Origin: Hypomesus transpacificus
Lineage: Eukaryota
Assembly (NCBI RefSeq): GCF_021917145.1
Contig: NC_061076.1
Coordinates: 13,032,768 to 13,096,767 of the forward strand
DNA: 64,000 nt
Reading direction: 5' to 3'
Shown here: positions 7,676 through 59,850 of the stretch, in pieces
How the letters are laid out: every line of letters starts with the position of its first letter
How positions within the stretch are numbered: the stretch's first letter is position 1
The notes under the pieces: generated by a model
What the model saw: only the letters and a program-made list of their open reading frames with translations
The model's database searches: none
Told to the model about the DNA's origin: nothing
Translations under genes and position numbers: made by a program

Positions 7676-8440
7676 ATTAGTGCTGTCAGTTAAACGCTTA
7701 TTAACGGCGTTAACGCAAACCTAAATTAACGGCGTCAATTTTTTTATCGCGCGATTAACGCTCTTTTTGACCTAGCAAACTTTGTAGTTTTTTCACATTC
7801 TGTTGCAACAACCACTGACGTTAGAAAAACTACAATACCGCACTGGATCTAGCTAGACCGGAAACAAAACAACAGGCACGCCACACACACTTGTTTGGGC
7901 TTGCGAGCCGGCTAAAGAGTAGTAGCAAAGCCCATTTACGGATATTAGACATTCTCTGGTAGTAGGCTAACGTTACGTTTTGAGTTGATTGCCAGCACCA
8001 GACGCCGAAATGGCTGCCAATAAGATTCTGAATGGAAAGTTTACTTTTAAAAGGTTGCCAAATGGTTCCATTGACGAGACCAAAGTGATCAGTGTGTTCT
8101 GTCGTTGTGAACTGAGCTATTATCGCAGCACGTCGTGGAGTCTAAAATACCATTTTGATGGCCAAGCACACAGCTGATGCAAATTCTCCGCCCGCTTGTC
8201 AAAGCCAGGCGATTGCAATGTTGTTTTCAATTTAAAAAAAACATTTGCACGAAGCAATCCGAACTACTTTTCCATGTTGATAAGAGCATTAACATTTGAA
8301 AAAATAATGGATGAAAAATAAATCAAGGGACATTTAGAATAGATAAAAATGTGTGATTAATTGCGATTAATCGCAAGTTAACTATTACATTAATGCGATT
8401 AATCGCGATTAAATATTTTAATCGTTTGACAGCTCTACAT
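7676..8440 (+). mobile_element. hAT-family non-autonomous element with a BED zinc-finger remnant
   Basis: The termini are AGTGCTGTCAGTTAAACG... and ...CGTTTGACAGCTCT, hAT-like TIRs with ...GATTAATCGCGATTAA... sub-terminal motifs. An internal ORF at 7989-8177 reads NGKFTFKRLPNGSIDETKVISVFCRCELSYYRSTSWSLKYHFDGQAH, a C..C...H..H BED finger. A near-identical copy lies at 57300-58082. Confidence 0.75.
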
Positions 8441-16260: not shown

Positions 16261-16990
16261 ATGAAGGTCGACACACATCTGCCTTACTTGAATGGTATGT
16301 TCTGCTGTATACCAACACGCACCAGGTTGAGCTTCAACAACGACAAGCCCTGGTTCTCAGCAGAGCTCAGAAGGTTGAGGTCAGAGAAGGAGGAAGCTTT
16401 AAGGAGTGGGGATAGAAACAGATTCAAGGAGTCGAAGAACAGGTTTAGCAAGGCGGTGAGAGATGCTAAACGACTGTACTCTGAGAAACTGAAGCGTCAG
16501 TTCTCTGCTAACGACTCTGCTTCTGTCTGGAGAGGGCTCAGGCAGATCACCAACTACAAGCCCAGAGCCCCCCACTCCACCAACGACTCCCGTCTGGCCA
16601 ATAACCTGAACAAGTTCTACAGCAGATTTGAAAGACAGTTGGACAGTCCTGAACTACCCCTTCCCATCCATGAGGCCTCACCCCTCCCCCCCTCTACAGT
16701 GACGACTCTCTCCATTCAAGAGGGTGAAGTTAACATACTTTTCGAGAGGCAGAACCCCCGCAAAGCAGCTGGGCCGGACTCTGCCTCTCCTGCCACCATC
16801 AAGCACTGCGCTGACCAGCTGTCTCCTGTGTTTACCAACATCTTTAACACCTCCCTGGAGACATGCCATGTGCCAGCCTGTCTCAAGTCCTTCACCATCA
16901 TCCCTGTGCCCAAAAAGCCAAGGCCAACAGGACTTAATGACTACAGACCCGTCGCCCTGACCTCTGTGGAAGCTAACTTAAGCTAGGTAC
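16261..16990 (+). mobile_element. Non-LTR retrotransposon internal fragment (region between endonuclease and RT; same family as 48900-51790)
   Basis: The ORF reads ...FSANDSASVWRGLRQITNYK...FERQNPRKAAGPDSASPATIKHCADQLSPVFTNIFNTSLETCHVPACLKSFTIIPVPKKPRPTGLNDYRPVALTS. This is the diagnostic teleost LINE ORF2 linker/RT N-terminus. Confidence 0.8.
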
Positions 16991-22560: not shown

Positions 22561-24959
22561 ACACACAGAACAAAACGATTTGGGGACTCTTTTGTTAGTT
22601 TTGCTATTGGGAAGCTAAATATGCATAAATGAATGGCATTCATGGACGGAACTATGAACTTATTCTGGGTTTTCAACATTAAGTGATTCTTGTACTGTAT
22701 TATACTGTATTGTGTGTTGTCGGGTATGCTGTTTATGTAGTATTTTATGATGGATTGTATGTATTTTGGTTCCTGTCTACAAACAAATGTCCCCTAATGG
22801 AATCAATAAAATTGACTTGATTAACTAGGAAGAGAGATCATATTTCTTCCATTATTAGCTTCTCTCAACTGCCTCCCTGTAAATACAGAATCAAATTCAA
22901 AATCCTTCATCTCACCTACAACCATAATGGTCGAACTCCATCATAACTTGCTTATAAGCTTATAAGGCTGGATGTCCCCCTGTCCCCATCTCTCACTGTA
23001 AAATCTATAGTTGCTGGACGTAGTCTCTGCTTGATGGGTCTCACACCTCATTGTGTAACTTAGTGTCACATTGCTAAGTCATGTGTTGATAAGTAAGGGT
23101 CAAAATGTGGTGTGATTGGTTGTTCTTGTGCATAAAGGGAATTGTGAAGCATTGTTCTGTGTATTCTTCATCTCCTGAGACCTTCTCCTCAGTCTGGCTT
23201 GTCTTACTCCTTCTTCCTCACCTCTTACTCTCTCTGGTTTACAATAATCAAGGTAGAGTAGGTAAGATTTAAAACTGTCGCTTTGTAACATGTTTACCTT
23301 GTAATTGATTTCATTCATTTGCAATGTTCTTAAATGTATAACTAATTTCACCTTGCTTTGACCATTCTTGCACAGATTTAACCCATTGTCAAATAACTAC
23401 AATTTCCATTGGTATTGACATAATTTGGTTAATGTTAACACACTATTCAGTTTCCCCTCTTCCATTAAACCATAGGGGAAGTTTTTGCTGTTTGGCAAAT
23501 ATTAAACACCCTACAAACGCATAGTACTTTATTACCCGACTGGAACGCTGCACTCCCAGAATATTTGATATATTATAAAAATTGTTAAAAATGCAGTTGT
23601 CTGGACAGATAATATTGTTTAAAGTGTGAAAACTGTGTGAAATCTTATTAATAGAGGATGATTATCCTTAAATAACCATACAGATTTTTTTTTATAAACA
23701 ACTGTAGTTCTTATCCTCAATATAGTATGATCAGTTCAGGTGTGTGAATCAAGATTAATATGAATTTAATCTGGATATTATGACTACAAATGTGTGTCCC
23801 GGAGACGCCTATTCTTCCTGAGGAGACTGAAGAAGTTTGCGATGGACTCAGTCATCCTCACTAACTTTTACAGATGCACTATAATGAGCATACTGACTGG
23901 TTGCATCAGTGTGGTATGGCCTATATAGTGTAGTCCATTCTTCTGAGTTGCTCAACCTTCTATCAGACACCTGCACTTTATAGATCTATAATAAATACGT
24001 TGATTTTGTCTTGAACTTGTAATTGGTGATTCACTTCATTGACTTGGTACTTTCACAGCAATTGGGTACTATCTAATATGTCTTCAGTCTTAACCCTGTA
24101 AGTTTGTCTGCATTTGTGAATTTAATGGTATAGAATAATGTGTTAAAGCTTTATATTATGAGCAATATCAATAGGCTAGTGTCCAACTTTTGTATCAGGT
24201 TATAACAGTCTGCTGGTTTTGTTAGTGTTGGTGCACACACAAAAATTTAAACCTTTACTGTCGGTTTGAAGTTGTTTAATTTGCTATCTTGCACTTCTAC
24301 ACCAGTGCTAAACAGAGACGTGTAGTCAGAAGGCAAAATTATAAATAAAAACTCCCATTAGCAATAGGCTACATTCATTAGTAACTCATTAGCACCACCA
24401 AGTTAGCAAACACATATAAACTCAATACAATTACACTACACTGTTGCCACATGTTTGGAAATAACAAAATACAAGCAATATAACAAATGTAATGAATGCT
24501 AACTTTACAAGCATAAAACAAACTGTATTGTGGTCACGTAAACTTTTCTAGGTTGTGGTTCAGTGCAAGCACGGTTTCTTTGGTAGGCTATAATTGTTAA
24601 ATCCTACTTGAGAAAGGACACTGTTCACAGCTGTCAATAGGAAATTACCATTACCTGAATTACTTGTAGTGATTGGGAGGTTATTCCTGTTCTGATGATG
24701 GCATAAACCCTGTTAAGATTGTTGGCTCTATGTGCAATGTCTGGGTTTCCTCTCCCTCGTTTCTGTTTCTGTGTCTTTGTTTCTGTTGCAGGATGGCAGG
24801 CAGGTAGAGGAGCTGTGATTGCTGCTAGAGCACACCTGTGATCTGTGCCTCGGTCTTTAATAAGCTGTGCCCTAACAAGCTGGGTCTCTCCATTACTAGT
24901 AGGAACATCACTGTTTGCTTTTTAGTTTGTAATGATTCTCTACACACTCTACATTTACA

Positions 24960-25270
24960 TTTATTCATGTAGCAGACGCTTTTATCCAAAGCGACTTCCA
25001 AGAGAGAGCTTTACAAAGTGCATAAGTCACTGATAATAACAACAAGATAGCCCCAAAGCATTGTGGGTAGCCAAAACAAGAAGCACACATTGTGAACAAC
25101 CACAAAATAAGTGCCAAAGGGAAGAACCATAAGAGCATGTAGTTAAACAAGTTACAATTAAACAACATGAATCTCTAAGTGCAAGTGTACCTGTAGAAAA
25201 AAAAGCAAGCAACAGTAAAAAAATAAAATAAAAATAAGATGCTCTACACTTGCACTGATCCCACATCCAC
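24960..25270 (-). repeat. SINE-like repeat with the conserved teleost 3' tail (GTCGCTTTGGATAAAAGCGTCTGCTAAATGAATAAATGTAAATG), shared with the L2-like LINE 3' UTR
   Basis: The sequence matches 33630-33960 and 42640-42900 (same orientation) and 32290-32545 (opposite orientation). Here it has no adjacent LINE body. Confidence 0.7.
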
Positions 25271-29714: not shown

Positions 29715-32175
29715 TAAAAGTAGGGCTGTCAAACGATTAAATCGCGATTAATCGCATTAATGTCATAGTTAACTCGCGATTAATCACACATTTTCATCTA
29801 TTCTAAATGTCCCTTGATTTCTTTTCGTCCAATTCTTTTTCCTCATTTTAATGCTCTTATCAACATGGATAGGGGATTGGATTGCTTGGTGCAAATGTTT
29901 ATTTTATTTTATTGAAAACAACATTGCAATCTCCTGGCTTTGACGAGGGTCAAAGAATTCGCATCAGCTGTGTGCTTGGCCATCAAGTTGTATTTCAGAC
30001 TGGACATGCTGTGATGATAGCTCAGTTCACAATTACAAAACACACGGATCACTTTGGTCTTGTCAATGGATTTGGGAACTTTTTAAAATTAAACTTTCCA
30101 TTCAGAATCTTATTGGCATCCATTTCGGCGTCTTGTGCTCGCCATCCACTCAAAACGTAACGTTAGCCTACTACTCTTAAGCCGGCTTGCAAGCCCAAAC
30201 AAGTGTGTGCGTAGGGCTGCACAATTAATCAAATTTTAATCATGATCACGATTGCGGCTTCCCACGATCAAATTCACGTGATCGAGCGATATTTAAAATG
30301 TGTCATTCCGTTAATAGAACGCTCCGTATCAGTTATTTTTTGCAAAGCCAATCTAGCTGTCCGTAAACCAATAGGTGCGTTCGTCATCGGTTGCGGCTTC
30401 ATGAAATGACCAGCGAGAGTTGCCGCTTGCAATCGGGGAGGAGTTATAAACGGCTCTGTAAAGTCGGAAAATTTGTCATTTAATGTATTGGGCTATGATA
30501 AACTCTCTCCAATCTGTAGGCTGCAGCTGGCTGCGGCGCTGCATGGAGTTGAATACACCTATTATCTGATCACGAGATGTTCCCTGCACCACACAGCTTA
30601 GGCCCTGTCCTCACTAAAGCCCAAGTAAATTTAAAAACGCATACATATGTCTGCGTTTGCACCTCCAGTCCACACTAATACGGCGTATTCGGACACTGAA
30701 AACTGAACTTTTCGAATACTCTCCCCTAGCATAGAGTTACTATAACTAGAGTAAGCTACTTTTGTCTTCCAAGATGGCGTCCCCATTCATTTCTATGAAA
30801 AGTGCTCAGTGGCACAGTGAGGCAAGCGAGAGCGCGAGACTGGACGCAGCCATCTTTCCACTTCCGTGTCTTCCTGTCTAGCTTTAAACAGTGGCTCTTT
30901 TTTCCCTAGCTCCGAGAGCTCATGTAAATCGGCTATCGGCCAATGTGAACTTTTGTGCTCGTGCCCTGTTAGTATCCGCCAGCACATTTGTAGGCAACTT
31001 TCATTGACTAAGCAAATAAATGGGTTGCTAGTTTACCCATTTCGGATTGGTTTCAAACTAAGTAAAAATCTGGAAAAATTATTGTATAAAAAACCTAGTA
31101 GTATGAGCCAAGTTTGAGAATCAAACAAAAATTATTGGGGGAGATAGTTTTGTAAATGTTGAATGGAGTTAATAGAAAAAAACGACCGGAAGAGTCGGAA
31201 ACCTAACCGTACATGCAATACCACCTACATCCACCGGGGCCGTTGCTTCAAGCCGAGGGGCGAGGGGTGGGGGCTTGTCCCCTAGCCGGAGACATTTGAA
31301 AACGCCGGGTTCGCGTAGTAGTGTGGACGGGGTCCACGGAGCTTTTCAGATACGATGACGTTCAGTTGCTATGGCATTGGGTGTAGCTTTCGCTCTATAG
31401 CTATAATGTCAAGATGAACATAGAAGGTGAAAGAAATATGCTGCTCCATCTCTATAATTTATTTACCAGTTTAGTTAGTGTACTAAGTATCACATAATAG
31501 ATACGCGTTACTCCTACGCAGAAGGCGAGTGTTGTACCCGGTGTGCCTGAACAAGGCAGAGTTTAAACCTAACATAGTGTCGATTCTGGGTGAGACCTGG
31601 CTGAGCTGGTGGGAAAAAACACCAAATAGTATTGCCAGAGGAGTATGTAAACAGGGCACCGTGGCGTGAGGGAGGGGCAGGAGTGGCGTAATCATGACAA
31701 CGATTGTCATGTACCCGTGTTAGTGTGGACGGCAAACATTTGGAAAACGATATGAAAACGCTTGTGTGGATGGAGATTGTTTTTTATTGATTGTAGATTT
31801 TGAGTTTTATTCACATCCACTCTGCAGGTACAATGCATTGTGACAATCAAATTTGATTAAGTTAAAATCAACAAATAATTGTGATAATTAAACGTGATCT
31901 CAATATCGATCAAAATAATTGTGATTATCATTTTGGCCATAATCGTGCAGCCTTAGTGTGCGGCGTGCCTGTTGTTTTGTTTCCGGTCTAGCTAGATCCG
32001 CTGTGGTGTTGTAGTTTTTCTAACGTCGGTAGTTGTTGCAACAGCATGTGAAAAAAAATACAATGTTTGCTAGGCCAAAAAGAACGTTAATCGCGCGATA
32101 AAAAAAATGTATGCAGTTAAAATGGGTTAGCGTTAACGCCGTTAATAACGCGTTAAACTGACAGCACTGCATAAA
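29715..32175 (-). mobile_element. hAT-type non-autonomous element (inverted copy of the 7676-8440 family) split by a nested hAT-like insertion at 30213-31963
   Basis: The stretch 29715-30212 is the reverse complement of 7930-8440, and 31964-32175 is the reverse complement of 7676-7900. The inserted element has TIRs TAGGGCTGCACAATTAATC at 30213 and GATTATGGCC...GCTGCACGATTATGG at 31963. Confidence 0.7.
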
Positions 32176-33629
32176 AGCAATTTCTCATTCATTTAAACAT
32201 ATTGCCCATTCTCTGGTATACTCATGCAGATGATTACGTAGCCAACAATTGTCTGCTGTTTCCTACATTTTTAGTTAATCCTATTTTTATTGCTTCCTAC
32301 AGGTACACCTGCACTTAGAGATTAATGTTGTGTAATTTTAACTTGTTTAACTACATGCTCTTATGGTTTCTTCCCTTTAGCACTATTTTTTGGTTGATCA
32401 CAATATGTACTTCTTGTTTTTGACTACCCGCAATGCTGTGGGGCTATCTTGTTGTTATTATCAGTGACCTATGCACTTTGTGAAGCTCTCTCTTGGAAGT
32501 CGCTTTGGATAAAAGCGTCTGCTAAATGAATAAATGTAAATGTACATTATTAATAGCTAATGTCATGTTGATCAAAATGTATAATATATGTTCTCTGTAA
32601 AATGTTCTTACCCCCACAAACATCTAGTTCATGTACAACGGTTGAGCCAGCTGTCATAATTGTAGGCCTAATTTACTAAACAGTTCTGCGTAAGGGGTGT
32701 TTGCTTAACATTAGAATTTTTTATTTTGTGCTATGCATTGCTGTAAAATAGTCTTGCATTTTCTGTATCACATTGACTTAAGACACCGACAACTGACGAG
32801 GAGGCAGTTTAATCAGTGTATCTGTTTTTCAATGTGTTTTTTTGGATTCTCAGTAAAAAAAACTGATAGTTTTTGGATTCTCCCAAAAAATGACAATAAT
32901 AATCAGACCCTCCAGGAATTTGCAATGTTGCGATCGCACCGATTCACACAATTCCCAGCGAATTCAGCGCGCCTCGGAGAGGGCGTTCCACGTAGACGAG
33001 GGCGTTCCCATGTGTCCGTTTTTTGGAAAACGGAGAACCCTTAATCAGCCTGACAATAAGCCTGCCCCGGACCACGCTAGTTTTGAAGCATAAATTACTA
33101 TAGTAATTAGGGCTGCAACAACGAATCGCTTAAATCGCTTAAAATCCATTATTAAAAGCGTTGGCAACAAATTTTATTATCGAGAAACCGTCTTTGTGTG
33201 GAACTTCTGTAGTAAAGAACATGAAAGGACCATCAAAAGAGTACAACGGAGGGGAATCAGGATTTTCTCACTGGGGGTAGATGCAGTGTACCACCTCTAC
33301 CAACCCTGAAGGATAGACGGGAGACGGCTACAGTGAAACTGCTGAAAAGCATGCTTGAGGAAAGCCACCCTCTGCATGACCTCATTCCACCAACAAGGAC
33401 TAGGGCCACAGGGTGGATTCTAAGAATTAACTCGGCATCCCGATTTGCGAATTTCATGAAAAAAAATTTGGCCATTAGGGCCGGCCCAAGCCTTTATGGG
33501 GCCTTAAGCAGAATTGATTTCGGGGCCCCTCGGTGACGCCAATACAATTGATTACTACATACAATTTATTTTTAATGCTTGATTATTTGCACACTATTAA
33601 TCTAATGCACTAATTTCATGTGCTCTTAC

Positions 33630-36200
33630 ATTTACATTCATTCATTTAGCAGACGCTTTTATCCAAAGCGACTTCCAAGAGAGAGCTTTACAAAGTGCAT
33701 AGGTCACTGATAATAACAACAAGATAGCCCCAAAGCATTGCAGGTAGCCAAAAACAAAAGTACACATTGTGAACAACCAAAAATAAGTGCTAAAGGGGAG
33801 AAACCATAAGAGCATGTAGTTAAGTAAATTACAATTACACGACATGAATCTCTAAGTGCAAGTGTACCTGTAGGAAAGCAATAAAAATAGGATTAAATAT
33901 AATACAACAGTTTAAATCAGCTACCACTAACCAACAAGAGCAACAGTCTAAGCAAGAGTCATTGTGATCCTTGAGGAAACTAGCGTTGGGTTCAACAAAC
34001 CATTCCTAAGTACCGTTGTACTCCCGGAACAAGTGCGTCTTGAGCCTTCTCTTGAAGGTGGAGAGACAGTCTGTGTCTCTGATGGAGGTGGGGAGGTGAT
34101 TCCACCACTGGGGGGCCAGGCAGGAGAAGAGCTTGTGTTGGGACCGGGCGGTCTTGAGCGGTGGGACCACCAGGCGGTTGTCTGAAGAAGACCGTAGGTG
34201 GCGGGTGGGGGTGTAAGGCTGCAGGAGAGACTTGATGTAGTCGGGTGCAGTCCCGTTCACTGCTCGGAAGGTCAGTACCAGGGTCTTGAATCTGATGCGG
34301 GCCGTTATGGGTAGCCAGTGGAGGGAGATGAGGAGCGGGGTAACGTGGGAGCGTCTGGGTAGATTGTAGACCAGGCGGGCCGCTGCGTTCTGAATCCTCC
34401 GAAGAGGGCGGGTTGCGCATGCTGGTAGACCGGCGAGCAGCGAGTTGCAGTAGTCCAACTTGGAGAGGACTATTGCTTGGACAAGCAGCTGGGTGGAGTG
34501 CTCAGACAGGTATCTCCTGATCTTCCCGATGTTGTAGAGGGTGAATCTACACGACCGGGAGACCGCAGCAATGTGGGCCGTGAGGGAGAGCTCGTCATCC
34601 ATGGTAACCCCAAGGTTCCTGGCAGAGGATAAGGGGGTCACCGTCGCAGATCCCAGGGTGATTGAGAGGTCGTGGGAGATGGAGGGTTTGGCCGGGATGA
34701 TGAGAAGTTCCGTTTTGGCAAGGTTCAGCTGGAGGTGGCGCTCGGTCATCCAGGCGGAGATGTCTGCGAGGCAGGCCTCAATCCTAGCTGAGATCCCCGG
34801 ATCGGTCGGGGGGAACGACAGGTACAGCTGCGTGTCATCAGCGTAGCAGTGGTAGGAGAAGCCATGGGAGGTGATGATTGGTCCAAGTGAGGTGGTGTAC
34901 AGAGAGAAGAGGAGGGGTCCAAGGACGGAGCCCTGTGGGACACCAGTGGAGAGCTGGCGAGGGTCTGACACTTTGCCTCCCCAGGAGACCTGGTATGATC
35001 TTCCCGACAGGTAGGATGAGATCCACTGGAGTGCAGTGCCAGTGATCCCCATCTCAGAAAGTCTGGAGAGCAGGATCTGGTGGTTAACCGTATCAAACGC
35101 CGCAGAAAGGTCCAGCAGAATGATGACGGATGACCTCGAAGCCGCTCTGGCAGACTGGAGGGCAGTGGTGACTGAAAGGAGGGCAGTCTCTGTGGAGTGT
35201 CCGGTCTTGAAGCCCGATTGGTTGGGGTCAAGCAGGTTGTTCTGAGAAAGAAAGTTAGACAGTTGGTTAGATACAGCACGTTCAATTGTTTTAGAGAAGA
35301 AGGGTAACAGTGATACCGGTCTGTAGTTCTGGAGGACGGCAGGGTTAAGGGAGGGTTTTTTGAGTAGAGGGGTAACTCTGGCCTGTTTGAAGGCAGAGGG
35401 GAAGGTGCCAGAGGTAAGAGAGGAGTTTAGAACATGGAGCAGAAAAGTTATGATCAAGGGGGAGATGGTTTGAAAGAGAGGGGAGGGGACAGGATCAAGG
35501 GGACAGGAGGTGGGGCGATGAGAGAGAATGAGGTCAGAGAGCTCTGCCTCGGACAGGGGAGAGAAAGAGTTTAGACATTTAGTTGGGTCAGTCATGGAGG
35601 GTGAGGGGGTAGGAAAGGTGGGTTTAGGGAACCGACTGCTAATGTCGGCGACTTTTTTCTCAAAGAAGGAGGAGAAGTCGTCTGCTGTCAGGATGGAGGG
35701 AGGGGGTGGGGGAGGTGGGTTAAGAAGGTTGGAGAAGGTAGAGAAAGGTTTGTGGGGGTTTGAAGCAGAGTTAATTATGTTAAGAAAGTAGAGGGTTTTA
35801 GCACCAGTTATGTGAGAAGAGAAGGATTTAAGGAGGGAGTGATACTTATCAAGGTCCAGATCGTCTTTGGACTTGCGCCATCTCTTCTCAGCTGCTCGAA
35901 GGGTGGACCGTTCTTCACGAATAACATCCGTAAGCCACGGGCAGGAGGGAAAAGATCGTGCAGGCTTTGTTGACAGGGGACAGAGAGAGTCAAGTGATGT
36001 AGTTAAAGTGGTTAACAAGGTGTCGGTGGCAGTGTTAGTGGGGTGGGACGAGAACTCGTCAATGGCCTCTTGTGGGCCCTCTGATGGCCAAAGGGGCCCT
36101 AAGCAGCCGCTTAGTTCGCTTATGTCTTGGACCAGCTCTGTCGGCCATACTGCAGTGTTTCCGCTATGTTGGCCCACCACGGCAACATTTCTGCAGTATC
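33630..36200 (-). mobile_element. L2-like non-LTR retrotransposon, 5'-truncated, with an intact 724-aa reverse-transcriptase ORF (34006-36180) and a SINE-like 3' UTR/tail
   Basis: The ORF contains the RT motifs ...LLDLSAAFDTVNHQILLSRL..., [16 protein letters not shown] and YADDTQLY. It ends with the C-terminal LHWLPI.ARIRFKTLVLTFRAVNGTAPDYIKSLL...RLKTHLF domain. No stop codon interrupts its 2.17 kb. Confidence 0.85.
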
Positions 36201-37424
36201 AGAAATAGGGCTGTACAAAATTTTAGGCCGTCTATCAGCAGTGATTGTTAGAAAGCATATCAGATGATAGCACGGACACGCGCTTCACAGCGCAGTTGAG
36301 ATTGCATGTGTGCATCCTTGAGAACTGTAGAACTAAGATGAGAACTAAGTCGTATAACTTATGTTGTCAGTTAATTTAAGCCTGTTTTCGTATTAGTCTA
36401 TAGTTCTTGCTAATTTAAATTAAGTTAACTGGTGATTTTCATTGTTTGTAGGCTATTCTTCCCCTGCTAGCGAAATTGCACATGTCGATTCAATAGTGAT
36501 TGCTGCCCTTGTTCACGTTTGTATTTTAGGTGCATTATTATGCTGAAGTAGTTTTAATTAATAAATAGTGGGTATATCGTTATTATTAGCTACTAGAATG
36601 CTTAGCCTATCAAGATCAAATGAAGCAGACAGTGTACAAGCTTCCGAGTGGCCCCTTAATTGATAGTCTAGGCTACTGACCATTTACAATAAGTTATTAA
36701 GTCAATTATTCATTGGCAGCATTTATGCCATTTAGAACATACTATATGACTGTAGGGTGTCATTAAGTTGCCTAACTTTATTTCTTTCGGGGAAATAAGA
36801 CAAAAATATGTGCAATTTTACATGAGCTATTAGACTGTTACATTAACCTGCTCCAAAATATAGGGTTAGGGTTCACACTTTGTTTCGGCCGGGGAGGGGG
36901 GGGGGGGGGGTCGGACAGACCTGCCCCCACTGCAAAAAAAAAAATCCTAGAGGAAACACTGTACTGTATGTATATGTATGTGCGAACTTGAACAATTATT
37001 TACGAGCACGGTGCGCGAGTGACGGGCTGTTATCAATACACAAAACAACATTGCGATGAAGTGAAGCACCATTGATTTCACATGGAAAGCAAGCGACGGA
37101 GTCGCGACTAACATCTCATAATGACGCGTGAGCGACGATTCGCTACCAATGGGCCAGAGCCACATAAAAAGAGAGTTATGACACTCTTGATCTCGCCAAC
37201 ACATGATCACTTGGTTTAAGTAGCTCGCAAAAAAAAACCCACTGCTGTCAACCTGTTTGGTTTTCAATAGAACAGACAGTAGCAGCATCTTCCAAATGAT
37301 GATGTGTCTTTGGGCAAGGCACTTCACCCTCCTTGCCTCGGGGGGAATGTCCCTGTACTTACTGTAAGTCGCTCTGGATAAGAGCGTCTGCTAAATGACT
37401 AAATGTAAATGTAAATGTAATGTA

Positions 37425-42639: not shown

Positions 42640-44402
42640 ATTTACATTTATTCATTTAGCAGAGGCTTTTTTTCCAAAGCGACTTCCAAGAGAGAGCTTT
42701 ACAAAGTGCATAGGTCACTGATAACAACAACAAGATAGCCCCAAAAACATTGCAGGTAGCCAAAACATGAAGCAAATATTGTGAACAACCAAAATAAGGG
42801 CAAATGGAAGAACCATAAGAGCACTCTGCAAGTGTACCTGTAGAAAAGCAAGCAACAGTAAAAATAAAAATAAAAATCACAGCAAGTACAACAATCAGTT
42901 ACCACTAACCAACAAGAGCAACACGTCTCTCAATAAGAGACATTGTGATCCTGGAGGAAACATCAGGTCCAGCCAATCATTCCTAAGTACCGTTGGACTC
43001 CCGGAACAAGTGTGTCTTGAGCCTTTTCTTGAAGGCGGGGAGACAGTCAGTGTCTCTGATGGAGGTGGGGAATTGATTCCACCGTTGGGGGGCCAGACAG
43101 GAGAAGAGCTTGTGTTGGGACCAGGCGGTCTTGAGCGGTGGGACCACTAGGTGGTTGTCTGAAGAAGACCGTACATTTACATTTAGTCATTTAGCAGACG
43201 CTCTTATCCAGAGCGACTTACAGTATGTACAGGGACATTCCCCCCGAGGCAAGGAGGGTGAAGTGCCTTGCCCAAGGACACAACGTCATTTGGCACGGTG
43301 GGAAATCGATCCGGCAACCTTCTGATTACTATCCCAACTCCCTCACCGCTCAGCCATCTGACTCCGATAGGTGTCGGTTGGTGGTGTAAGGCTGCAGGAG
43401 AGACTTGATGTAGTCGGGTGCAGTCCCATTCACTGCTCGGAAGGTCAGTACCAGGGTCTTGAATCTGATGCGAGCCCTGATGGGTAGCCAGTGGAGGGAG
43501 ATGGGTAGATTGTAGACCAGGCGGGCCGCTGCGTTCTGAATCCTCTGAAGAGGGCGGGTTGCGCATGCTGGGAGACCGGCAAGCAGCGAGTTGCAGTAAT
43601 CCAACTCGGAGAGGACGAGTGCTTGGACTAGCAGCTGGGTGGAATGCTCAGACAGGTATCTCCTGATCTTCCGGATGTTGTAGAGGGTGAATCTACACGA
43701 CCGGGAGACTGCAGCAATATGGGCAGTGAGGGATAGCTCGTCATCCATGGTAACCCCAAAGTTCCTGGCAGAGGATGAAAGGGTCACCGTCGCAGATCCC
43801 ATGGTGATTGAGAGATCGTGGGAGATGGAGGGTTTGGCCGGTATGATGAGAAGTTCTGTTTTGGCGAGGTTCAGCTGGAGGTGGTGCTTGGTCATCCAGG
43901 TGGAGATATCTGTGATGCAGGCCTCAATATTAGCTGAGATCCCCGGATCGGTCGGGGGGGAACGACAGGTACAGCTGCCTGTCATCAGCGTAGCAGTGGT
44001 AGGAGAAGCCATGGGAGGTAATGATTGGTCCAAGTGAGGTGGTGTACAGAGAGAAGAGGAGGGGTCCAAGGACGGAGCCCTGTGGGACACCAGTGGAGAG
44101 CTGGCGAGGGCCTGACACTTTGCCTCCCCAGAAGACCTGGTAGGATCTTCACGACAGGTAGGATGAGATCCACTGGAGTGCAGTGCCAGTGATTCCCATC
44201 TCAGAAAGTTTGGATAGCAGGATATGATGGATAACCGTATCAAACTCTGCAGAAAGGTCCAGCAGAATGATGACGGATGACCTTGAAGCCGCTCTGGCAG
44301 ACTGGAAGGCAGTGGTGACTGACAGGAGGGCAGTCTCTGTGAAGTGGCCAGTCTTGAAGCCCGATTGGTTGGGGTCAAGCAGGTTGTTCTGAGAGAGAAC
44401 AA
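42640..44402 (-). mobile_element. L2-like LINE copy (same family as 33630-36200), 5'-truncated, carrying a SINE insertion
   Basis: The minus-strand ORF at 43350-44402 reads ...[13 protein letters not shown]...LHWLPIRARIRFKTLVLTFRAVNGTAPDYIKSLL. The element is interrupted at 43176-43375 by a tRNA-derived SINE. Confidence 0.8.
43176..43375 (-). mobile_element. tRNA-derived SINE (full length), inserted into the LINE
   Basis: Its reverse complement reads GGAGTCAGATGGCTGAGCGGTGAGGGAGTTGGGATAGTAATCAGAAGGTTGCCGGATCGATTTCCCACCG...TTGGGCAAGGCACTTCACCC...GTCGCTCTGGATAAGAGCGTCTGCTAAATGACTAAATGTAAATG. A 5'-truncated copy lies at 37300-37420 (+). Confidence 0.8.
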
Positions 44403-44483
44403 ATAATCGTTTGTTGCAGCCCTACTGTATAATCATTATAAATTCACTGGTCATGGTTAATCCTCTCTTCTTCGGCCCCCCAG

Positions 44484-44650
44484 ATGGCATCCAAGACGTT
44501 TGGAAGCAGAGGGGTAGAAGTTCAGAGTTTGGTGGATGTGTCAATCATCCGTATCCCACCCCACCACTACATCCATGTGTTGGATCAGAACACAAATATT
44601 GCTCGAGTGGAGACTGGACCGCTCACCTACATCCGCCAGGACAATGAGAG
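44484..44650 (+). CDS. mvp: Major vault protein, first coding exon (ATG at 44484)
   Basis: The exon translates to [55 protein letters not shown](R), versus the human MVP N-terminus [42 protein letters not shown]. The donor is AG|GTTAGT at 44651. A polypyrimidine tract plus CAG sits immediately 5' of the ATG, so a 5' non-coding exon probably lies upstream. Confidence 0.9.
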
Positions 44651-48899: not shown

Positions 48900-51790
48900 A
48901 CTTTTCTTTCTTCTGAAGTTGTTTTTGTTTCGTTTGTTGTTGTTTTCTTTTATATTTTGTTAAGAGATGGCCAAGCAATGGACCGTTACCTTTTGTTTTT
49001 TTTTTTGGTGTCTTTTCTGTTGTCTTTTCTGTTACTTTTTTCCCCTTCTTGTAACGGAGAGCAAAGCACAGTGGATTGGTGCCTTTGTTATTTGCACGAT
49101 CAGCTGATTGCGCTGAGTAAACCTTTACTACTGCCCGGAGCAAAGCCTAAAATCCCCAAAGAACTTCAGAGAAGGTGTTGGGGTTGCAGAACTGGAGCTA
49201 AGCTGAAGGCGAAGAGGAGGAAACACAAGCCATCGGTACCGGCGATTTTAATGGGGAATGTGAGGTCTTTGGTTCGGTCGGACAGGGACGTCATACAGAG
49301 CGGTAAGAAGGAAGGTGGAGGGATTGCTGTCTATGTGAACGAGAGGTGGTGCAATTCCGACCATGTGTGTGTGAAGGAATGTTTCTGTTGCTCGGACTAC
49401 ATATTTTAGCTAATATAACTTATAATATAGAAGTTCAATACTTCTAGCCGTGGGGATGCATCCGTATTACTTGCCAAGGGAATTCTCATCCGCCATTGTC
49501 ATCGCTGTGTACGTTCCTCCATCAGCTGACGCTGAGGCAGCAGTGGACATCATCCACTCCACTGTGTCCAAACCGCAGACTCAGTATCCCGATGCATTTT
49601 TGGCAGTTACTGGAGACCTTAACCACACCACTCTGGATAAAGTACTGCCAACTCTACACCAGTATGTGAACTGCCCCACATGGAACAATAAAACCCTGGA
49701 TCTCCTGTATGCTAATGTCACAGATGCATACAGTGCTACTGCCTTTCCCCCCCTTGGTAGGTCGAATCACAACCTGGTCCTGCTGACTCCCAAGTATGTT
49801 CCTCTGGTGCAGAGGCAGCCTGTGACCACCAGGACGGTGAGGAGGTGGACACAGGAGGCTAATGATGCACTGCAGGACTGCTTTGAGTCCACAGTATGGT
49901 ATGCGCTGTGTGGACCACATGGGGAGGACAACAACAGCATGACGGACTGTATCACAGAATATATACGAAATTCTGTAAACACCACTGTACCATCCCGGAC
50001 TGTTCACTACTTCCCCAATAACAAGCCCCAGTAACAATCACCAGTGACCTGAAAGTGCTTCTTAATAAGACGAAAGCAGCTTTCAGGTCTAGGGACAGGG
50101 AGGAGCTAAGGAGAGTTCAGCGCAACCTGAAGGTGAAGCTCAGGGAGTGTAAAGACTCCTATAGGAGGAAGCTGGAGGCAAAACTCCAGAAGAACAATTT
50201 GAGGGAGGTGTGGGCCGGCATGAAGGAGATCACAGGCTTCAAGGGGAGAGCGAGACAACCAGGTGGCTCCCTGGATAGGGCCAATGAGCTGAACTGTTTC
50301 TCCAACAGGTTTAGCTCACAGCCCTCATCTGTTTCCTCCACACACCACACCTCCCAAACACCTCCGCTGCCTTCCCCCCTGGTGAGCTGCATGGACAGAG
50401 AGCCCTCTACATCAAAGGGCTCTTCCACCACTGACGCCATGACCCCCCTCCCCCCCACTCTGTGACGACTGGCCAGGTTCGGAGACAGCTGGAGAGACTC
50501 CACCAGCGCAAGGCTGCAGGATCTGACGGCACCAGCCCCAGGGTACTGAAGACCTGCGCCGCCCAGCTGGCTGAGGTCCTGCAACACCTCTTTAACCTGA
50601 CCCTGAAGCAGGAGGAGGTCCCAGTGCTGTGGAAGACGTTGTGCCTGGTACCAGTTCCTCCATCTGGCCTCAAGGACTACCGACTGGTTGCCCTTACGTC
50701 GCATGTGATGAAGGTGCTGGAGAGGCTGGTCTTGGCCCACCTCAGGCCGCTGGTGAGATCTTCCCTGGACCCGCTGCAATTTGTATACCAGCCTCATGTG
50801 GGAGTGGACAATGCCCTCATCTACCTGCTGCAACTAGCTCAGTTGCACCTTGATGGAACCAGTGGCTCTGTGAGAATCACTTTCTTTGATTTTTCGAGTC
50901 CATTTAATACCATCCAACAACTGCTGCTGAGTGAGAAGCTGCGGGTGGAGGGGGTGGATACGTCCACTCTCTCCTGGATCACTGACTACCTCACAGGCAG
51001 ACCACAGTTTGTCCGACTAGGCAGTGTGCTGTCTGATACGGTGGTCAGTGGTACTGGAGCTCCACAGGGAACTGTTCTGTCTCTCTTTCTGTTCACCTTA
51101 TACACCACTGACTTCCAGTATAACTCAAGAGTCCTGCCATCTGCAGAAGTTTTCGTATGACTGTGCAGTGGTTGGGTGTTTAAGGGATTGACGGGAGGAG
51201 GAGTACAGGAAAGTAGTGGAGGACCTTGTGGAGTGGGCGGGTAGAAACCACCTGCTCCTGAACGTGGTCAAGACCAGAGAGATGGTGGTTGACTTCAGGA
51301 GGAAGACGACGGCTCCACAACCATTGAGAGTTCTGGGAGAGGATGTGGAGTTGGTTAAGGAGTACAAGTACCTGGGTGTGTCCATCGACAACAGACTGAA
51401 CTGGAAAACCAACATCAATGCTGTCTACAAGAAGGGGATGAGTCGACTCTTTTTCTTGAGGAAACTTCGATCATTTAACGTGTGCAGCAAGATGTTGGAG
51501 ATGTTCTACCAGGCTGTTGTGGCCAGTGCACTGTACATCGCTGTGGTCTGCTGGGGGAGCAGTATTGGAGCTGGAGACACCAGCCGACTTAACAAACTTA
51601 TTAGGAAGGCTGGCTCCATCATTGGCTGCAAACTGGACAGTCTGGAAAAGGTGGTGGAGAGAAGGACACTGAAGAAACTATTATCCATTTTGGATAATCC
51701 AGACCACCCTCTCCACCACCTACTGCAGGGACAGCGGAGCACGTTCTCCAATAGACTCCTTCAGCTACGCTGTAGGCGTTACAACTAACC
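48900..51790 (+). mobile_element. Near-full-length teleost non-LTR retrotransposon (endonuclease plus RT), with a frameshifted ORF2, inside mvp intron 4
   Basis: Successive + ORFs read ...KHKPSVPAILMGNVRSLVRSDRDVIQSGKKEGGGIAVYVNERWC (endonuclease N-terminus), MGMHPYYLPREFSSAIVIAVYVPPSADAEAAV...AVTGDLNHTTL...GRSNHNLVLL (endonuclease), ...QRKAAGSDGTSPRVLKTCAAQLAEVLQHLFNLTL...DYRLVALTS...FFDFSSPFNTI...GAPQGTVLSLFLFTLYTTD (RT), and ...LLNVVKTREMVVDFRRK...RLFFLRKLRSFNV... (C-terminus). Confidence 0.88.
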
Positions 51791-52320
51791 AACAAGAGCA
51801 ACAAATCTCTCAATAAGAGTTGTTGTGATCCTGGAGGAAACATCAGGTCCAGCCAATCATTCCTAAGTACCGTTGGACTCCCGGAACATGTGTGTCTTGA
51901 GCCTTTACTTGAAGGTGGGGAGACAGTCAGTGTCTCTGATGGAGGTGGGGAATTGATTCCACCATTGGGGGGCCAGACAGGAGAAGAGCTTGTGTTGGGA
52001 CCGGGCACTCTTGAGCGGTGGGACCACCAAACGGTTGTCAGAAGAAGACCGTAGGTGGCGGGTGGGGGTGTAAGGCTGGAGCATGGACTTGATGTAGACG
52101 GGTGCAGTCCCGTTCACCGCTCGGAAGGTCAGTACCAGGGTCTTGAATCTGATACGGGCCGTGATGGGAAGCCAGTGGAGGGAGATGAGGATGAGGATGA
52201 GGGTTGATTGAAGACCAGGCGGGCTGCCGCGTTCTGAATCCTCTGGAGAAGGCTGCATGCTGGGAGACTGGAGAGCAGAAAGTTGCAGTAGTCCAACTTT
52301 GACTTTGAGGAGCTTACAAC
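51790..52320 (-). mobile_element. L2-like LINE 3' fragment (third copy of the 33630-36200 family)
   Basis: The fragment is 90% or more identical to 33965-34450 and 42905-43560. The minus-strand ORF reads LISLHWLPITARIRFKTLVLTFRAVNGTAPVYIKSMLQPYTPTRHLRSS... Confidence 0.8.
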
Positions 52321-54709: not shown

Positions 54710-54946
54710 AAAGCGCTGCATGTGCGTGCACTTCGCGCCTTCAGGGATGCGGTTGGTCGAGACCGACGCACAGGGGAGGAGTGGTTGGTGACCATGGCAG
54801 ACCGGGAGGCACACATTCCCTCTGTGGCTGAGGAGGTAGTAGGTGTGGTTGGCGTGACCACTCTGAGCAGTAGACAGTACTGTGTAATCCTTGACCCAGT
54901 CGGACCAGATGGCAAGCCCCAACTGGGGCAGAAGAGGGTTGTCAAG
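54710..54946 (+). CDS. mvp: Major vault protein exon
   Basis: The acceptor is gcctctcag. The exon reads [79 protein letters not shown], which matches human [79 protein letters not shown]. The donor is GTGAGA at 54947. Confidence 0.92.
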
Positions 54947-55066
54947 GTGAGACCTTGTGCCCCTCTTCTCAAGACAAGAAGGAACCAAACCGACTATAAA
55001 GACAGACATTTATTGTGCGACACCCATCTTCTCATCTTTTTTGCATTCTCTCTTCCTTTGTCTCAG

Positions 55067-55195
55067 GGTGAACGCTCCTTCTTCCTGCAGCCAGGGGAGC
55101 ATCTGGAGACAGGCATCCAGGACATCTATGTGCTCTCAGAGGAGGAGGGGCTGGTGTTAAGGGCTGTGGAGGCCTTCAATGACACTGAGAAGGTG
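55067..55195 (+). CDS. mvp: Major vault protein exon (3' boundary uncertain: donor after 55192 or about 55198)
   Basis: The acceptor is cctttgtctcag. The exon reads [44 protein letters not shown], which matches human [46 protein letters not shown]. The only GT near the expected boundary is GTGAAG at 55193. I did not find the downstream mvp exons in 55.3-64 kb. Confidence 0.75.
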
Positions 55196-57299
55196 AAGAG
55201 CGGAGGGGTCTTTTTTTGGTGTGTTGTTGGGTGGTGGTTCTCAACTGGTCTAACCTCAGGACCCACATTTGTCCTTGTTCATTAACCTGTTCTGGAGACT
55301 GTTAAATGTGCCTAAAAACGCCTAAACAGCATGCCCAAAGTAAATTGAAAGCTGTTCTTGAACCATTTGGAGTACATGCATGTAAATGGACTCTTTTGAA
55401 AGCTGACACTCTGAAGTTATGTTCCTTGTTGTCAGGACCCCTGTCAGTCCTACTGGTGTTGAGTAATAGAAGCTTGAACACAAGGAAAGTGAAAGTTTCT
55501 ATTTCCGCCTGGATTTTGTTTTGAAAACAGAGGCCTGAAGAGGCCTAGAGGTGGTAGGTATTAGCTGGAAGACAGAATTGGACCACAGGTTGAAGCCTTA
55601 CCCAATTCAGATCAAAAGTCAAACATAATACCACAATATATTCATATTTGACACATGTTTTTATTAGAGTACATCCAGGCGTTTTCTAAAAGGGCCATTT
55701 GGAGACTCCAGAATGACCATTCTAACCAAGGTCAAATTCTTAGGATAAAAAGGTATAATTGTTATCTCTAATGAAAGGTGGTCCTTAGAACTATCATATA
55801 TAACAGCTAAATCCCTCATTAGTATTACTGAAACACAAAAACTGAAGCATGAACACATTGGAGTGATTTATCTGATTCCCAGGATTGGCACACAAAGAAC
55901 ACTGACATATTGCGCAATCGACTTTTATTTTGAAGGCTCCACAAAACCTGGCATATGGGGTATCGCCATTTACAGCTAGCGCTAAGCTACAAGGATAATT
56001 AGCTCTTTTCAGAGGCAATCCAAGCCAGTTAGAAAAAATCGTGTAGAGGGGGCGGGGGGGGGGTGGGCGGGGGGCGGGCTGGACGCACAGACCTAGTTGG
56101 CTTTAGAGGACTGTCACCGGGGCATGGAAGCTCCTATTGGCTAAACCAAGGTGTCTATCAACAGGTCAGAGTGTAGCGGCCATTTTAAGATTATCCCCGT
56201 GTTTCTACTTGACCCAGATCTCATGCTATGAGCTAAAGTGCGTTGAGAGACAGAATTCTTTTTTTTTACAAAGTAACAATGAAGCAACAAGATCGTGGCT
56301 ATGTGTGGATATAATTCTTTGTTTGGACAACTACTCGACATGGTTTGATACTTAGGACCCTTGGGAATGTAAGCAGATGAGGTTTTGATGAGTTGTGTGC
56401 ATACCTGGACATTCCTAAGTAATCGAAGGTAAGTACAACTTTTTTCTCTGGCATTGTTGAATGAACGGTCACCGGACAAAGACGTTGACGCTACTTTCTG
56501 TTGCAAGTTGAGCTTGAATTGGTTTATTTTAATGGAAGCACAAGAATCGTAGCTTTCCAACGATGTATAACATGTGTACTAGTCGAAAAAAATTATTTAT
56601 GATTTTTAATGCGTAATAACTGGGGGAGGAGGGGGCAGTGTTTCGGGCCCACGGGCCCGAAACACTGCCCCTAAACAAACAGCGCTGCAGTTTTGATTGA
56701 TACTTTGACATTTGTGTTCTAGAATGCGAGCAGCATGGTGTGAGCCTACACACTTTTCAAAATAAAAGCACACCATTGGAATTTCGGTAATTTATAAAAA
56801 CAAAAGTTAGACTTTTTGACGGAGCCTCTCCACACCACCTTGCATGGTCGTAGGGAATGTACCATAGAGTCCAGTAGAGATAAGACTTAGAATGAAAGAG
56901 TATAAAAAATGCAAAAATGCTCTTCAACGTAGGTTGCAGCCCGTGGACATAGAGACAAAACACACACACAAGCATAGACACATTGAACTGACATGAGTCT
57001 GCATCGATGACAGACATAATGTGGATGGCTCACTCTCATGCAGTTCCCCAACTGAAGTGTGCCCTCCTTTTATAGACTCCACCCCTGATAAACCACACCT
57101 ACTGACTGAACTACAGTACTACACATAATTTAATATTTATGCGCAACTCTTGCTGCCATAAAAAAAACAGTAGGTACACAATAAATACTATTCACAAGTA
57201 ATAAATACTATTTACACTCGATTACAGTTTTGTAAACACCTCATGCCATAACAAAGCATACACAGATTAAAAAAAATTGTATCTGAAATTGTCAGTGAA

Positions 57300-58082
57300 C
57301 TTGGCCACCCTTAATAATAATACTAGTGCTGTCAGTTAAATGCGTTATTAACGGCGTTAATGTAAACCCAAATTAACGCCGTCAATTTTTTTTATCGCGC
57401 GATTAACGCTCTTTTTGACCTAGCAAACTTTTCAGTTTTTTTCACATTCTTTTGCAACAACCACTGACGTTAGAAAAACTAAAATACCACACCGGATCTA
57501 GCTAGACCGGAAACAAAACAACAGGCACGCCACACACTTGTTTGGGCTTGCGAGCCGGCTAAAGAGTTGTAGCAGAGCCCGTTTACGGATATTAGACATT
57601 CTCTGGTAGTAGGCTAACGTTACGTTTTAAGTTGATTGCCAGCGCCAGACGCCGAAATGATGCCAATAAGATTCTGAATGGAAAGTTTACTTTTAAAAGG
57701 TTGCCAAATGGTTCTATTGACAAGACCAAAGTGATCAGTGTGTTCTGTCGTTGTGAACTGAGCTATCATCGCAGCACGTCGTGGAGTCTAAAATACCATG
57801 TTGATGGCCAAGCACACAGCTGATGCGAATTCTCCGCCCGCTCGTCAAAGCCAGGCGATTGCAATGTTGTTTTCAACATTTCAATTTAAAAAAAAACATT
57901 TGCACAAAGCAATCCGAACCACTTTTCCATGTTGATAAGAGCATTAAAATTTTAAAAAAGAATGGATGAAAAAGAAATCAAGGGACATTTAGAATAGATA
58001 AAAATGTGCGATTAATCGCGAGTTAACTATGACATTAATGCGATTAATCGCGATAAAATATTTTAATCGTTTGACAGCTCTA
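57300..58082 (+). mobile_element. hAT-family non-autonomous element with a BED zinc-finger remnant (second copy)
   Basis: The element is collinear with 7676-8440. Its ORF at 57632-57823 reads NGKFTFKRLPNGSIDKTKVISVFCRCELSYHRSTSWSLKYHVDGQAHS. Its TIRs are AGTGCTGTCAGTTAAATGCG and CGTTTGACAGCTCT. Confidence 0.75.
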
Positions 58083-58099: not shown

Positions 58100-59850
58100 T
58101 CCAAGGCGCCTTTCTCGGCACTCATGGACACCGTACAGAGGTACAAAAAAACATTAAAAGCAGCAGAAAAATTAGGAATCCAACAACATTAAAAACAACA
58201 TAAGGAAGCAGTGCAAATGACATTAAGTGGAATAAACAGTAGTAAAAAGATGTGTTTTGAGTTGTGATTTGAAATGGGGGAATGAATCGATATTTCTGAG
58301 TTGGGGTGGTAATGAGTTCCAGAGATGGGAAGCAGAGCGGCTGAATGCTCTACTCCCCATGGTGGGGAGACAGGTAGAGGGGACAGACAGGTGTATGGAG
58401 GAAGAGGATCTGAGGGAGCGGGAGGTAGTGGGACCCTGGAGGAGATCAGACAAATATGGGGGGGTGAGGTTGTGGATGGCCTTAAACAGGAGGATCTTGA
58501 ATTGTATGCGAAACGGGACCGGGAGCCAGTGGAGCTGTTGAAGGACAGGAGTCATGTGGTGGCTAAAGGGGTTGCGAGTTATAATGCGGGCAGCTGAATT
58601 CTGGACCAGTTGAAGTTTATGGAGAGATTTGTGAGCGAGGCCAAAAAGGAGGGAGTTGCAATAATCTAGACGGGCAGTGACACGACTGTGTACAAGAATG
58701 GCGGCAGTGTGGGGGGTAAGGGAGGGGTGGAGATGGTTGATATTTCTCAGATGAAAGTAGGCAGACCGGGTAATGTTATTGATGTGGGGTTGAAAGGATA
58801 GTGTGCTGTCAAGGATGACACCCAGACTCTTAACCTTGGGGGATGGTGAAACGGAGGAGTTCTCAATATAAGAGAAAAACTGTCGGTTTTGGATAAAGTG
58901 GATTTTGTGCCAATGAGGAGAACCTCGGTTTTATTACTGTTTAATTTGAGGAAGTTTTGGGTTAACCAGATTCTTATTTCAGTGATGCAATCAGTAAGGG
59001 AGGTGGGCGGGAAAGTGGATGAGGGTTTAGTAGAAAGGTAGAGCTGGGTGTCATCAGCATAACAGTAAAAGTGAATGTTGAATTTGCGAAAGATATTGCC
59101 AAGGAGAAGGAGGTAAATGATGAAGAGTTGGGGCCCCAGGAGAGAAGTGACAGAGGAGGTAGTGGATTTAAAACACTTTAGTTGAATGAACTGAGTGCGG
59201 TCAGAGAGGTAAGATGTAATCCAGTCTAATGGAGTGTGGGTGATGCCGATCGAAGATAGTCAAGTCAAGTTGGCAAGTGGATGGCTTTGATTTCCGGATG
59301 AGTCCTGTGATATCTGAAAGAGCGTCACATCACCAGCATTTACGTTGCGTCTCGTTTTCGTCACTTGATAGAGGTTCGTTGACGACGATATTTAGTCATA
59401 ATTTTCGTTGACGAAAGCAACACTAGCTGGAAGGAGGAGAATGAGTCTGTAGATGGGTGGAAGTCTGTTGAGAAGCTGAGCTTAGGGGTTGATCCAAGGT
59501 ACTGGTGGATGTTATAGATTTTTTCATTGAAGAAGGACATGATGCAGAGTTGCAGAAGGAGGTTGTATACAGCTGAGGGGGAAGAATGTCCTGGGGTTGG
59601 GTGATATTGTTAAGTAAGGAGAACAGTGTCTTGGAGTTTCCATTATTGGCAGTGATTATACTTGAGTAGTAGTGGGTATTGGTGCTAGCAATGGAGTCCT
59701 TGTAACGTAAGATGTGGTTATTGTACATTTCTTTGTGAATAGTGGGACCAGTTTTCCTGTGAAGACGCTCAAGTTGTCGACCTTTGGTTTTCATGAGACA
59801 AAGATCGGGGGTAAACCAAGGGGGGGAGACGGAAAAGGAAACAGGGCAAG
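58100..59850 (-). mobile_element. Degraded L2-like LINE (a different family from the 724-aa copy)
   Basis: The minus-strand ORFs read [32 protein letters not shown]...[37 protein letters not shown] and ...KTLFSLLNNIT.... Multiple stops and frameshifts interrupt the RT region. Confidence 0.7.

Follow-up and report, generated by a model that had tools for sequence, protein, structure and literature searches.

L2-clade long interspersed nuclear elements (LINEs) of the 'stringent type' have been described from the eel (UnaL2) and from zebrafish (its homologue ZfL2-2). The tail of UnaL2 consists of a stem-loop followed by a (UGUAA)n repeat; the GGAUA loop, above all its second G, is needed for retrotransposition, reverse transcription begins on the repeat with template slippage, and short interspersed nuclear elements (SINEs) bearing such a tail are mobilised in trans (PMC1636434). 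In zebrafish ZfL2, the hairpin is bound by the region of ORF2 between the endonuclease and the reverse transcriptase (RT) (PMC4176376). In two further LINE/SINE pairings, HAmoL2 with the HAmo SINE (silver and bighead carp) and, in salmonids, SalL2 with the SINEs SmaI and FokI, the L2 LINE shares a conserved tail of ~42-60 nt with tRNA-derived SINEs, and many genomic copies of teleost L2 LINEs are 5'-truncated (PMC2653535). Here, we analysed a stretch of 64,000 nucleotides from Hypomesus transpacificus (contig NC_061076.1, positions 13,032,768 to 13,096,767; referred to as the window, in whose own coordinates all features are given). A reading made from the letters alone (the sequence-only reading) had pointed to a possibly recently active L2-like LINE in this window, which was thought to share its 3' tail with SINE-like repeats. 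Our analysis indicates that the locus very probably holds a teleost L2-clade LINE that was 5'-truncated on insertion and so dead on arrival, and that the short pieces are truncated copies of the same element.

The insertion in question (LINE copy 1) lies on the minus strand at 33626..36150, is ~2.5 kb long as delimited by tblastn and protein alignment, and has its 3' end at 33626. It largely coincides with the open reading frame (ORF) of 724 codons at 34006..36180 (minus strand) that had been reported previously; this frame is present exactly as described, with its RT motifs and the C-terminal LHWLPI...KTHLF region intact. The count of 724 amino acids holds under the bacterial code (table 11) with a GTG start, but the first ATG is codon 196 (at 35595), which leaves an ATG-initiated product of 529 amino acids, and the initial 10-38 or so codons are read-through into an unrelated flanking repeat. 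The sole Pfam domain in the frame is RVT_1 (34675..35361, minus strand; amino acids 274-502; E 1.2e-37), and the YADD, LHWLPI and KTHLF motifs are found at amino acids 446, 620 and 714, respectively. In a multiple alignment, the frame retains all the columns that are invariant in 10 full-length relatives. It spans the linker/tail-binding region, the RT domain and the C-terminal domain of ORF2, so that the linker between endonuclease and RT is kept; the endonuclease domain is absent, with no Pfam match to Exo_endo_phos anywhere in the frame. The stretch of copy 1 is GC-rich (0.55), and its GC skew is strong compared with the surroundings.

A protein search with the copy 1 frame returned thousands of fish ORF2-like proteins. 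The full-length relatives, which include proteins from Garra rufa, Leuciscus, Alosa, Danio and Salvelinus, are ~930-970 amino acids long, carry both Exo_endo_phos and RVT_1, and show 56-65% amino acid identity over 94% of the frame length. In tblastn and in a multiple alignment, the match between these proteins and copy 1 starts no earlier than their residue ~285: two of them (P0004 and P0007) begin to match in tblastn at their residues 284-286, equivalent to window position 36066, and the multiple alignment shows a weaker similarity possibly out to ~36125. No endonuclease-coding remnant was found upstream of copy 1, and its place is occupied by an unrelated, non-coding repeat of ~680 bp (36181-36863, minus strand), a second copy of which lies at 6859-7416 (plus strand; 70-79% identical). 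The homology of this flanking repeat possibly extends down to 36153, and the tblastn matches, the repeat homology and the protein alignment together place the 5' junction of copy 1 between 36066 and 36152. Because homology starts only at residue ~285 and no remnant of the endonuclease lies upstream, copy 1 is recognised as a 5'-truncated LINE, of which the 3' two-thirds are preserved. Judged from these alignments, the first 265-285 or so residues of ORF2, holding the endonuclease domain, are missing together with the 5' untranslated region (UTR) and the promoter; lacking all three, copy 1 is not capable of autonomous transposition. Just past the flanking repeat, at ~36890-36925, there is a poly-C/poly-G tract.

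Of the features that define membership in the L2 group, copy 1 possesses an RT domain homologous to L2-group ORF2 with an intact YADD, a 3' hairpin of the Rfam family RF00436 with a GGAUA loop, and a 3'-terminal TGTAA-type repeat in place of poly(A). The N-terminal apurinic-type endonuclease in the same ORF is not found, owing to the 5' truncation of this copy, since the relatives of the family carry the domain. By its sequence, the element is classed as an L2-clade LINE of the teleost UnaL2 / ZfL2-2 / HAmoL2 group; its proposed L2-like identity is thus borne out by the RVT_1 match, the identity to fish ORF2 and the UnaL2-type tail.

Copy 1 was also compared with L001, a public contig (ERZ2627053 NODE_80, ENA) encoding the protein P0001. 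The two are 92.4% identical over 1680 nt without gaps, and the proteins show 95% amino acid identity over the RT and C-terminal region; the gene called on this contig begins with the ATG that corresponds to codon 196 in copy 1, and its product is also 529 amino acids long. The differences fall on the three codon positions as 17/11/99, with a ratio of nonsynonymous to synonymous divergence (dN/dS) of 0.10, indicating that the ORF of the LINE family evolved under purifying selection, its lineages diverging as functional elements. The synonymous divergence from copy 1 is ~0.26, which indicates that L001 comes from a different subfamily or a different host species. This contig ends ~30 bp past the stop codon and carries no tail region for comparison. 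A 25-mer from the LINE-specific 3' UTR had no match in public metagenome contigs, and a protein-based scan of the same contigs gave 80 loci, all with at most 68% amino acid identity. Among 20 of these metagenome loci scanned for the UnaL2 element, it was found in L004 and L050 only, both relatives with at least 63% amino acid identity, and was absent in relatives with 35-48%. The LINE tail had no match in viral contigs, and a full-text literature search found no paper carrying the tail sequence strings.

The unbroken frame of copy 1 bears on two questions, namely whether the copy itself functions and how old it is. It could be argued that copy 1 is active or functional, either as an autonomous element with an unusual N-terminus or as a domesticated RT host gene, because its 2.17-kb frame is uninterrupted, all invariant RT residues are retained and dN/dS against L001 is low. 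We regard this as highly improbable: there is no endonuclease domain, the frame enters an unrelated repeat, its first ATG comes only at codon 196, and the locus sits in a repeat-rich stretch among decayed LINE copies. Furthermore, LINE copies that descend from different masters normally show a low dN/dS, which does not measure selection at the locus. Domestication of the RT was rejected in view of the missing endonuclease, the start of the frame in a foreign repeat and the repeat-rich setting. The unbroken frame reflects youth rather than function. We simulated the decay of the 2058-nt LINE part of the frame, assuming an indel-to-substitution ratio of 0.1 for the values that include indels. 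The probability of no stop codon was 0.36 at 2% neutral divergence and 0.08 at 5%; with indels, the probability of an intact frame fell to 0.015 at 2% and 0.002 at 3%. An intact frame is thus unlikely past ~2% neutral divergence, and it follows from this loss of simulated frames that copy 1 is probably a young insertion and that the LINE family has probably been active recently. The earlier suggestion of recent activity therefore stands, as a probability, for the family, in view of the intact frame and the strong purifying selection, but not for copy 1 itself, which has neither endonuclease domain nor 5' UTR. The other copies in the window show that the family has been active over a long period.

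We then turn to the 3' end. The LINE's own 3' UTR occupies 33626..34005 (minus strand; 380 bp), and its junction with the ORF is the same in copies 1 and 2. Within it, an UnaL2-type 3' element is found at 33636..33689 (minus strand), a hairpin in which a GCUUU/AAAGC upper stem carries a GGAUA loop. The Rfam model RF00436 ("UnaL2 LINE 3' element") matches it over all 54 model positions (54.2 bits, E 6.8e-8), with no departure from the model consensus in the upper stem or the loop. The minimum-free-energy fold of the tail is the expected hairpin, with a six-pair upper stem GCUUU(G)/...AAAGC and the GGAUA loop (z -2.35). The 3' end is formed by a terminal AAATGAATGAATGTAAATGTAA repeat of the TGTAA type (33626..33647, minus strand; read from the sequence), the presumed start of reverse transcription, as inferred from the work on UnaL2 (PMC1636434). 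The tail string was found at 33629-33672 (minus strand, one mismatch), 32499-32542 (plus strand, exact) and 24952-24995 (minus strand, one mismatch), with two more matches at three mismatches, while none would be expected by chance.

The same arrangement is seen in relatives whose flanking DNA could be inspected. In L002 and L003 (both Garra rufa, full-length), a single ORF is followed by a ~200-bp 3' UTR and then an UnaL2 element, and in L004 a LINE-coding match is followed by such an element; the three elements score 63-73 bits and end in (TGTAAA)n. The ORF DNA of the relatives is 68% identical to copy 1, compared with 92-96% for the last 53-59 nt (relatives' tails of 63-67 bits), which points to constraint on the tail.

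Two further copies of the LINE are present in the window, as the sequence-only reading had noticed, although with extents other than those it gave. Copy 2 (42640..44514, minus strand; self-BLAST and tblastn) is 5'-truncated within the RT region, keeps 1.7 kb of LINE sequence and is decayed, with an internal stop, a frameshift and 27 gap columns; it is interrupted by an insertion of ~195 bp at 43174-43367. Copy 3 (51780..52302, minus strand) consists of a C-terminal ORF fragment and the first ~85 bp of the 3' UTR, and has no tail. The claim that both are more than 90% identical to copy 1 holds for the ORF of copy 2 (91.8% over 1059 bp, self-BLAST) but neither for its 3' UTR, which is ~80% identical with indels and a 39-bp deletion, nor for copy 3 (84-86%); the mutated tail of copy 2 scores 33 bits with RF00436. 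Against copy 1, copies 2 and 3 show a dN/dS of ~0.3 together with stops and indels, a value that is a mix of master-lineage evolution and neutral decay.

These copies decide whether the tail belongs to the LINE. A segment of roughly 320 bp had been said to follow the LINE body in two copies; the same segment does follow in copies 1 and 2, but the 3' UTR is longer than that (380 bp). If the tail were an independent SINE that lies by chance beside a LINE body at both loci, the existence of tail-only copies and the lack of a tail in copy 3 would fit. However, copies 1 and 2 run collinearly through the stop codon, the proximal ~100 bp of the UTR and the tail, despite their different 5' truncation points and flanks, which mark them as independent insertions; an ORF-UTR junction common to two independent insertions makes the tail the LINE's own 3' UTR. 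In addition, full-length relatives in other species carry the UnaL2 element ~150-200 bp past the stop codon. As for copy 3, the tail is missing just where this copy is fused to another, unrelated LINE of the plus strand (48957-51788), which has several consecutive ORFs including RVT_1 and an ALKBH8_N-like motif and is 28% identical to the L2 RT. That LINE is 3'-truncated and joined tail-to-tail with copy 3 at ~51780, and its frame reads into copy 3, which indicates that a single rearrangement removed the 3' ends of both elements. We accordingly rejected copy 3 as a sign of a separable tail module, its break being the fusion with another 3'-truncated LINE. Chance adjacency, the circumstance under which the sequence-only reading would itself have been abandoned, is effectively refuted by the shared ORF-UTR junction, and we give it almost no credence.

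With the tail assigned to the LINE, the two tail-only pieces can be judged. They lie at 24946..25237 (minus strand; ~292 bp of LINE 3' UTR; RF00436 47.3 bits) and 32269..32544 (plus strand; 276 bp; 52.2 bits), so the tail segment does occur alone at two sites as had been reported, but the pieces cover only the last ~292 and 276 bp of the 3' UTR. Both are 92% identical to the LINE 3' UTR by BLAST, aligning collinearly over their whole length, and they begin at different UTR positions. A search for target-site duplications (TSDs), which had been proposed as a check, gave a 12-bp TSD, GTGTAGAG[C/A]ATC, for 24946-25237, only a weak 6-bp candidate for 32269-32544, and none of at least 7 bp at copies 1 and 2. 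Since the 12-bp TSD directly adjoins the UTR-homologous sequence, there is no space between them for a head.

The sequence-only reading had taken these pieces for SINE-like units, and a SINE or SINE-like non-autonomous family with the 3' tail of the LINE, on the model of UnaSINE1 and UnaL2, would account for several observations: both pieces end in the same UnaL2-type element, their 5' ends fall within ~30 bp in LINE UTR coordinates, and SINE-sized parasites of L2 tails are well documented in fish (PMC1636434, PMC2653535). We nevertheless consider it unlikely, because the pieces are LINE 3' UTR from end to end and have none of the parts that define a SINE, neither a 5' head derived from RNA polymerase III (pol III) transcripts with A and B boxes nor a common 5' end with a body distinct from the partner LINE. 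ARAGORN found no tRNA in the window, Rfam searches with E up to 5 found no tRNA, 5S or 7SL at the pieces, and no A or B boxes were detected at or upstream of them by a scan that recovers a real SINE at 43174-43367 as a positive control. The flanks upstream of the two pieces are unrelated, with no sequence in common. Moreover, the pieces are no closer to each other (88.3% identity) than to copy 1 (91.4% for 32269-32544 and 88.2% for 24946-25237), and nine informative sites pair 32269-32544 with copy 1 and 24946-25237 with copy 2, against two that pair the tail-only pieces with each other. On this sequence evidence, the tail-only pieces are best understood as severely 5'-truncated LINE insertions from different LINE subtypes and not as SINEs. 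It is also improbable that the ~280-290 bp units form a discrete, headless, LINE-derived family of non-autonomous retroposons instead of random 5' truncations; such a family, having no pol III promoter, would depend on read-through or a cryptic promoter for its transcripts and on the UnaL2-type hairpin for mobilisation in trans. A copy of a ~213-bp repeat resembling a miniature inverted-repeat transposable element lies at 31956-32168 (plus strand), ~100 bp upstream of the 32269-32544 piece; it has further copies at 7679-7888 and 57325-57538 (both minus strand), is 88-89% identical among them and contains CAGTGCTGTCAGTTTAACGCGTTA-type sequence.

Sharing of a tail between LINE and SINE is nonetheless real in the window, at 43174-43367 rather than at the tail-only pieces to which it had been ascribed. 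The insertion within the ORF of copy 2 (43174..43367, minus strand; ~195 bp) is a genuine tRNA-derived SINE, in which a tRNA-like head, a body and a LINE-type tail are all found within the 100-500 bp expected of such an element. Its head holds an A box (TGGCTGAGCGG, one mismatch, at 43356) and a B box (GGATCGATTTC, two mismatches, at 43312) with a spacing of 33 nt. The tRNA origin rests on these box motifs; neither ARAGORN nor the Rfam tRNA model recognised the head. The TTGGGCAAGGCACTTCACCC core may be MIR/CORE-like. The tail scores 64.5 bits with RF00436, above the gathering score, and has a GCUCU/AGAGC stem. A second, 5'-truncated copy of this SINE (~37290-37416, plus strand; RF00436 64.9 bits) shares 96.7% identity with it across 122 nt, a similarity suggestive of a young SINE family. 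Compared with the GCUUU/AAAGC stem of the LINE, the SINE stem shows a compensatory change with the GGAUA loop unchanged. Upstream of the last ~55 nt, SINE and LINE have nothing in common, so the LINE subfamily of copy 1 is not established as the partner of this SINE.

Several points weigh against the view that the locus and its short pieces are truncated insertions of one L2 element. No TSD of at least 7 bp was found for copy 1 in the TSD search or at the junctions of copy 2, where there is one 8-mer far from the junctions; an empty-site test with the second copy of the flanking repeat (6859-7454) likewise reconstructed neither a pre-insertion site nor a TSD, as the repeat is not continued 3' of the LINE. 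The 5' junction of copy 1 is fixed only to within ~90 bp. The tail of copy 1 falls 0.8 bits below the RF00436 gathering score (55), a shortfall that comes from one broken lower-stem pair (UGGA in place of UGUA). The tail-only pieces start within ~30 bp of each other in UTR coordinates and copy 3 breaks ~20 bp away; such clustering could hint at a discrete tail module, but it is not significant with two copies. Finally, the case for recent activity of the family depends on one intact frame, combined with an indel rate that was assumed.

Taking truncated L2 insertion as the preferred explanation, a course of events can be proposed by analogy with the UnaL2 and ZfL2 experiments (PMC1636434, PMC4176376). 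A full-length master elsewhere in the genome would encode one ORF2-type protein with the endonuclease, the tail-binding linker and the RT. This protein would bind its own RNA at the GGAUA hairpin of the 3' UTR, nick the target DNA and prime reverse transcription on the terminal TGTAA-type repeat, and reverse transcription would often halt short of the 5' end of the RNA. Its incomplete products would be copy 1 (2.5 kb, with the whole RT part), copy 2 (1.7 kb) and the two UTR-only pieces of ~280 bp. The SINE at 43174-43367 would presumably be mobilised in trans by L2 elements of the UnaL2 / ZfL2-2 / HAmoL2 group.

Other elements were noted in the window. An isolated, degenerate UnaL2-type tail at 3953-4014 (plus strand; RF00436 44.7 bits; stem GCUCU/AGAG(U)) has no recognisable SINE or LINE body upstream and is probably a case of extreme 5' truncation. 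A second, distant L2-like LINE fragment lies at 58244-59268 (minus strand), with its tail extending to ~58080; it is 40-45% identical in amino acids to full-length relatives, its 3' end (...GAGAAAGGCGCCTTGGAAAATAAAATTTATTATT) is not of the UnaL2 type, and the strong GC skew at 58-60 kb is due to this fragment. An ORF of 241 amino acids at 16261-16986 (plus strand) has no Pfam match and is weakly similar (24% identity, E 2e-5) to L2 ORF2 proteins in their linker and N-terminal RT region; it probably represents a piece of a further non-LTR element. At 54722-55285 (plus strand) there are exons of the gene for the major vault protein (MVP; Pfam Vault and Vault_2; matches to MVP proteins, with no near-identical one among the named proteins), indicating that the LINE cluster adjoins or sits within a host gene region.

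The result matters mainly for annotation: 33626-36150 and the related pieces are to be masked as L2 LINE fragments, with no gene call for the 724-codon frame and no new SINE entry for the tail-only pieces. The locus has a minor value as a further example of two known points: across fish L2 lineages the UnaL2-type hairpin (92-96%) is far better conserved than the coding sequence (68%), and a compensatory stem change sets LINE and SINE tails apart within a single genome. If intact full-length copies do exist in the host genome, the family would be a candidate active L2, useful for phylogenetic markers or transposition assays, which would be unsurprising.

Set beside the described systems, the locus most resembles UnaL2 and ZfL2-2, with which copy 1 was compared by the tail model and the published description. 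It has in common with them the ~60-nt tail, in which a GGAUA-loop hairpin precedes a TGTAA-type repeat; endonuclease and RT are encoded together in one ORF in its closest full-length relatives; and it retains the linker that binds the tail RNA in ZfL2 (PMC4176376). It differs in being 5'-truncated and devoid of an endonuclease, in the broken pair of its lower stem, and in a terminal repeat that reads AATGAATGAATGTAAATGTAA instead of a clean (TGTAA)3; its 380-bp 3' UTR also exceeds the ~200 bp of its nearest full-length relatives. With HAmoL2 and SalL2 the window shares the same kind of pairing, L2 copies accompanied by a tRNA-derived SINE with an UnaL2-type tail, whereas here the stems of the SINE and LINE tails differ from each other and the best named protein matches to copy 1 are only 59-65% identical. 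Overall, its anatomy and behaviour, namely 5' truncation, tail recognition and SINE parasitism, all lie within the already known type of the stringent L2 LINE.

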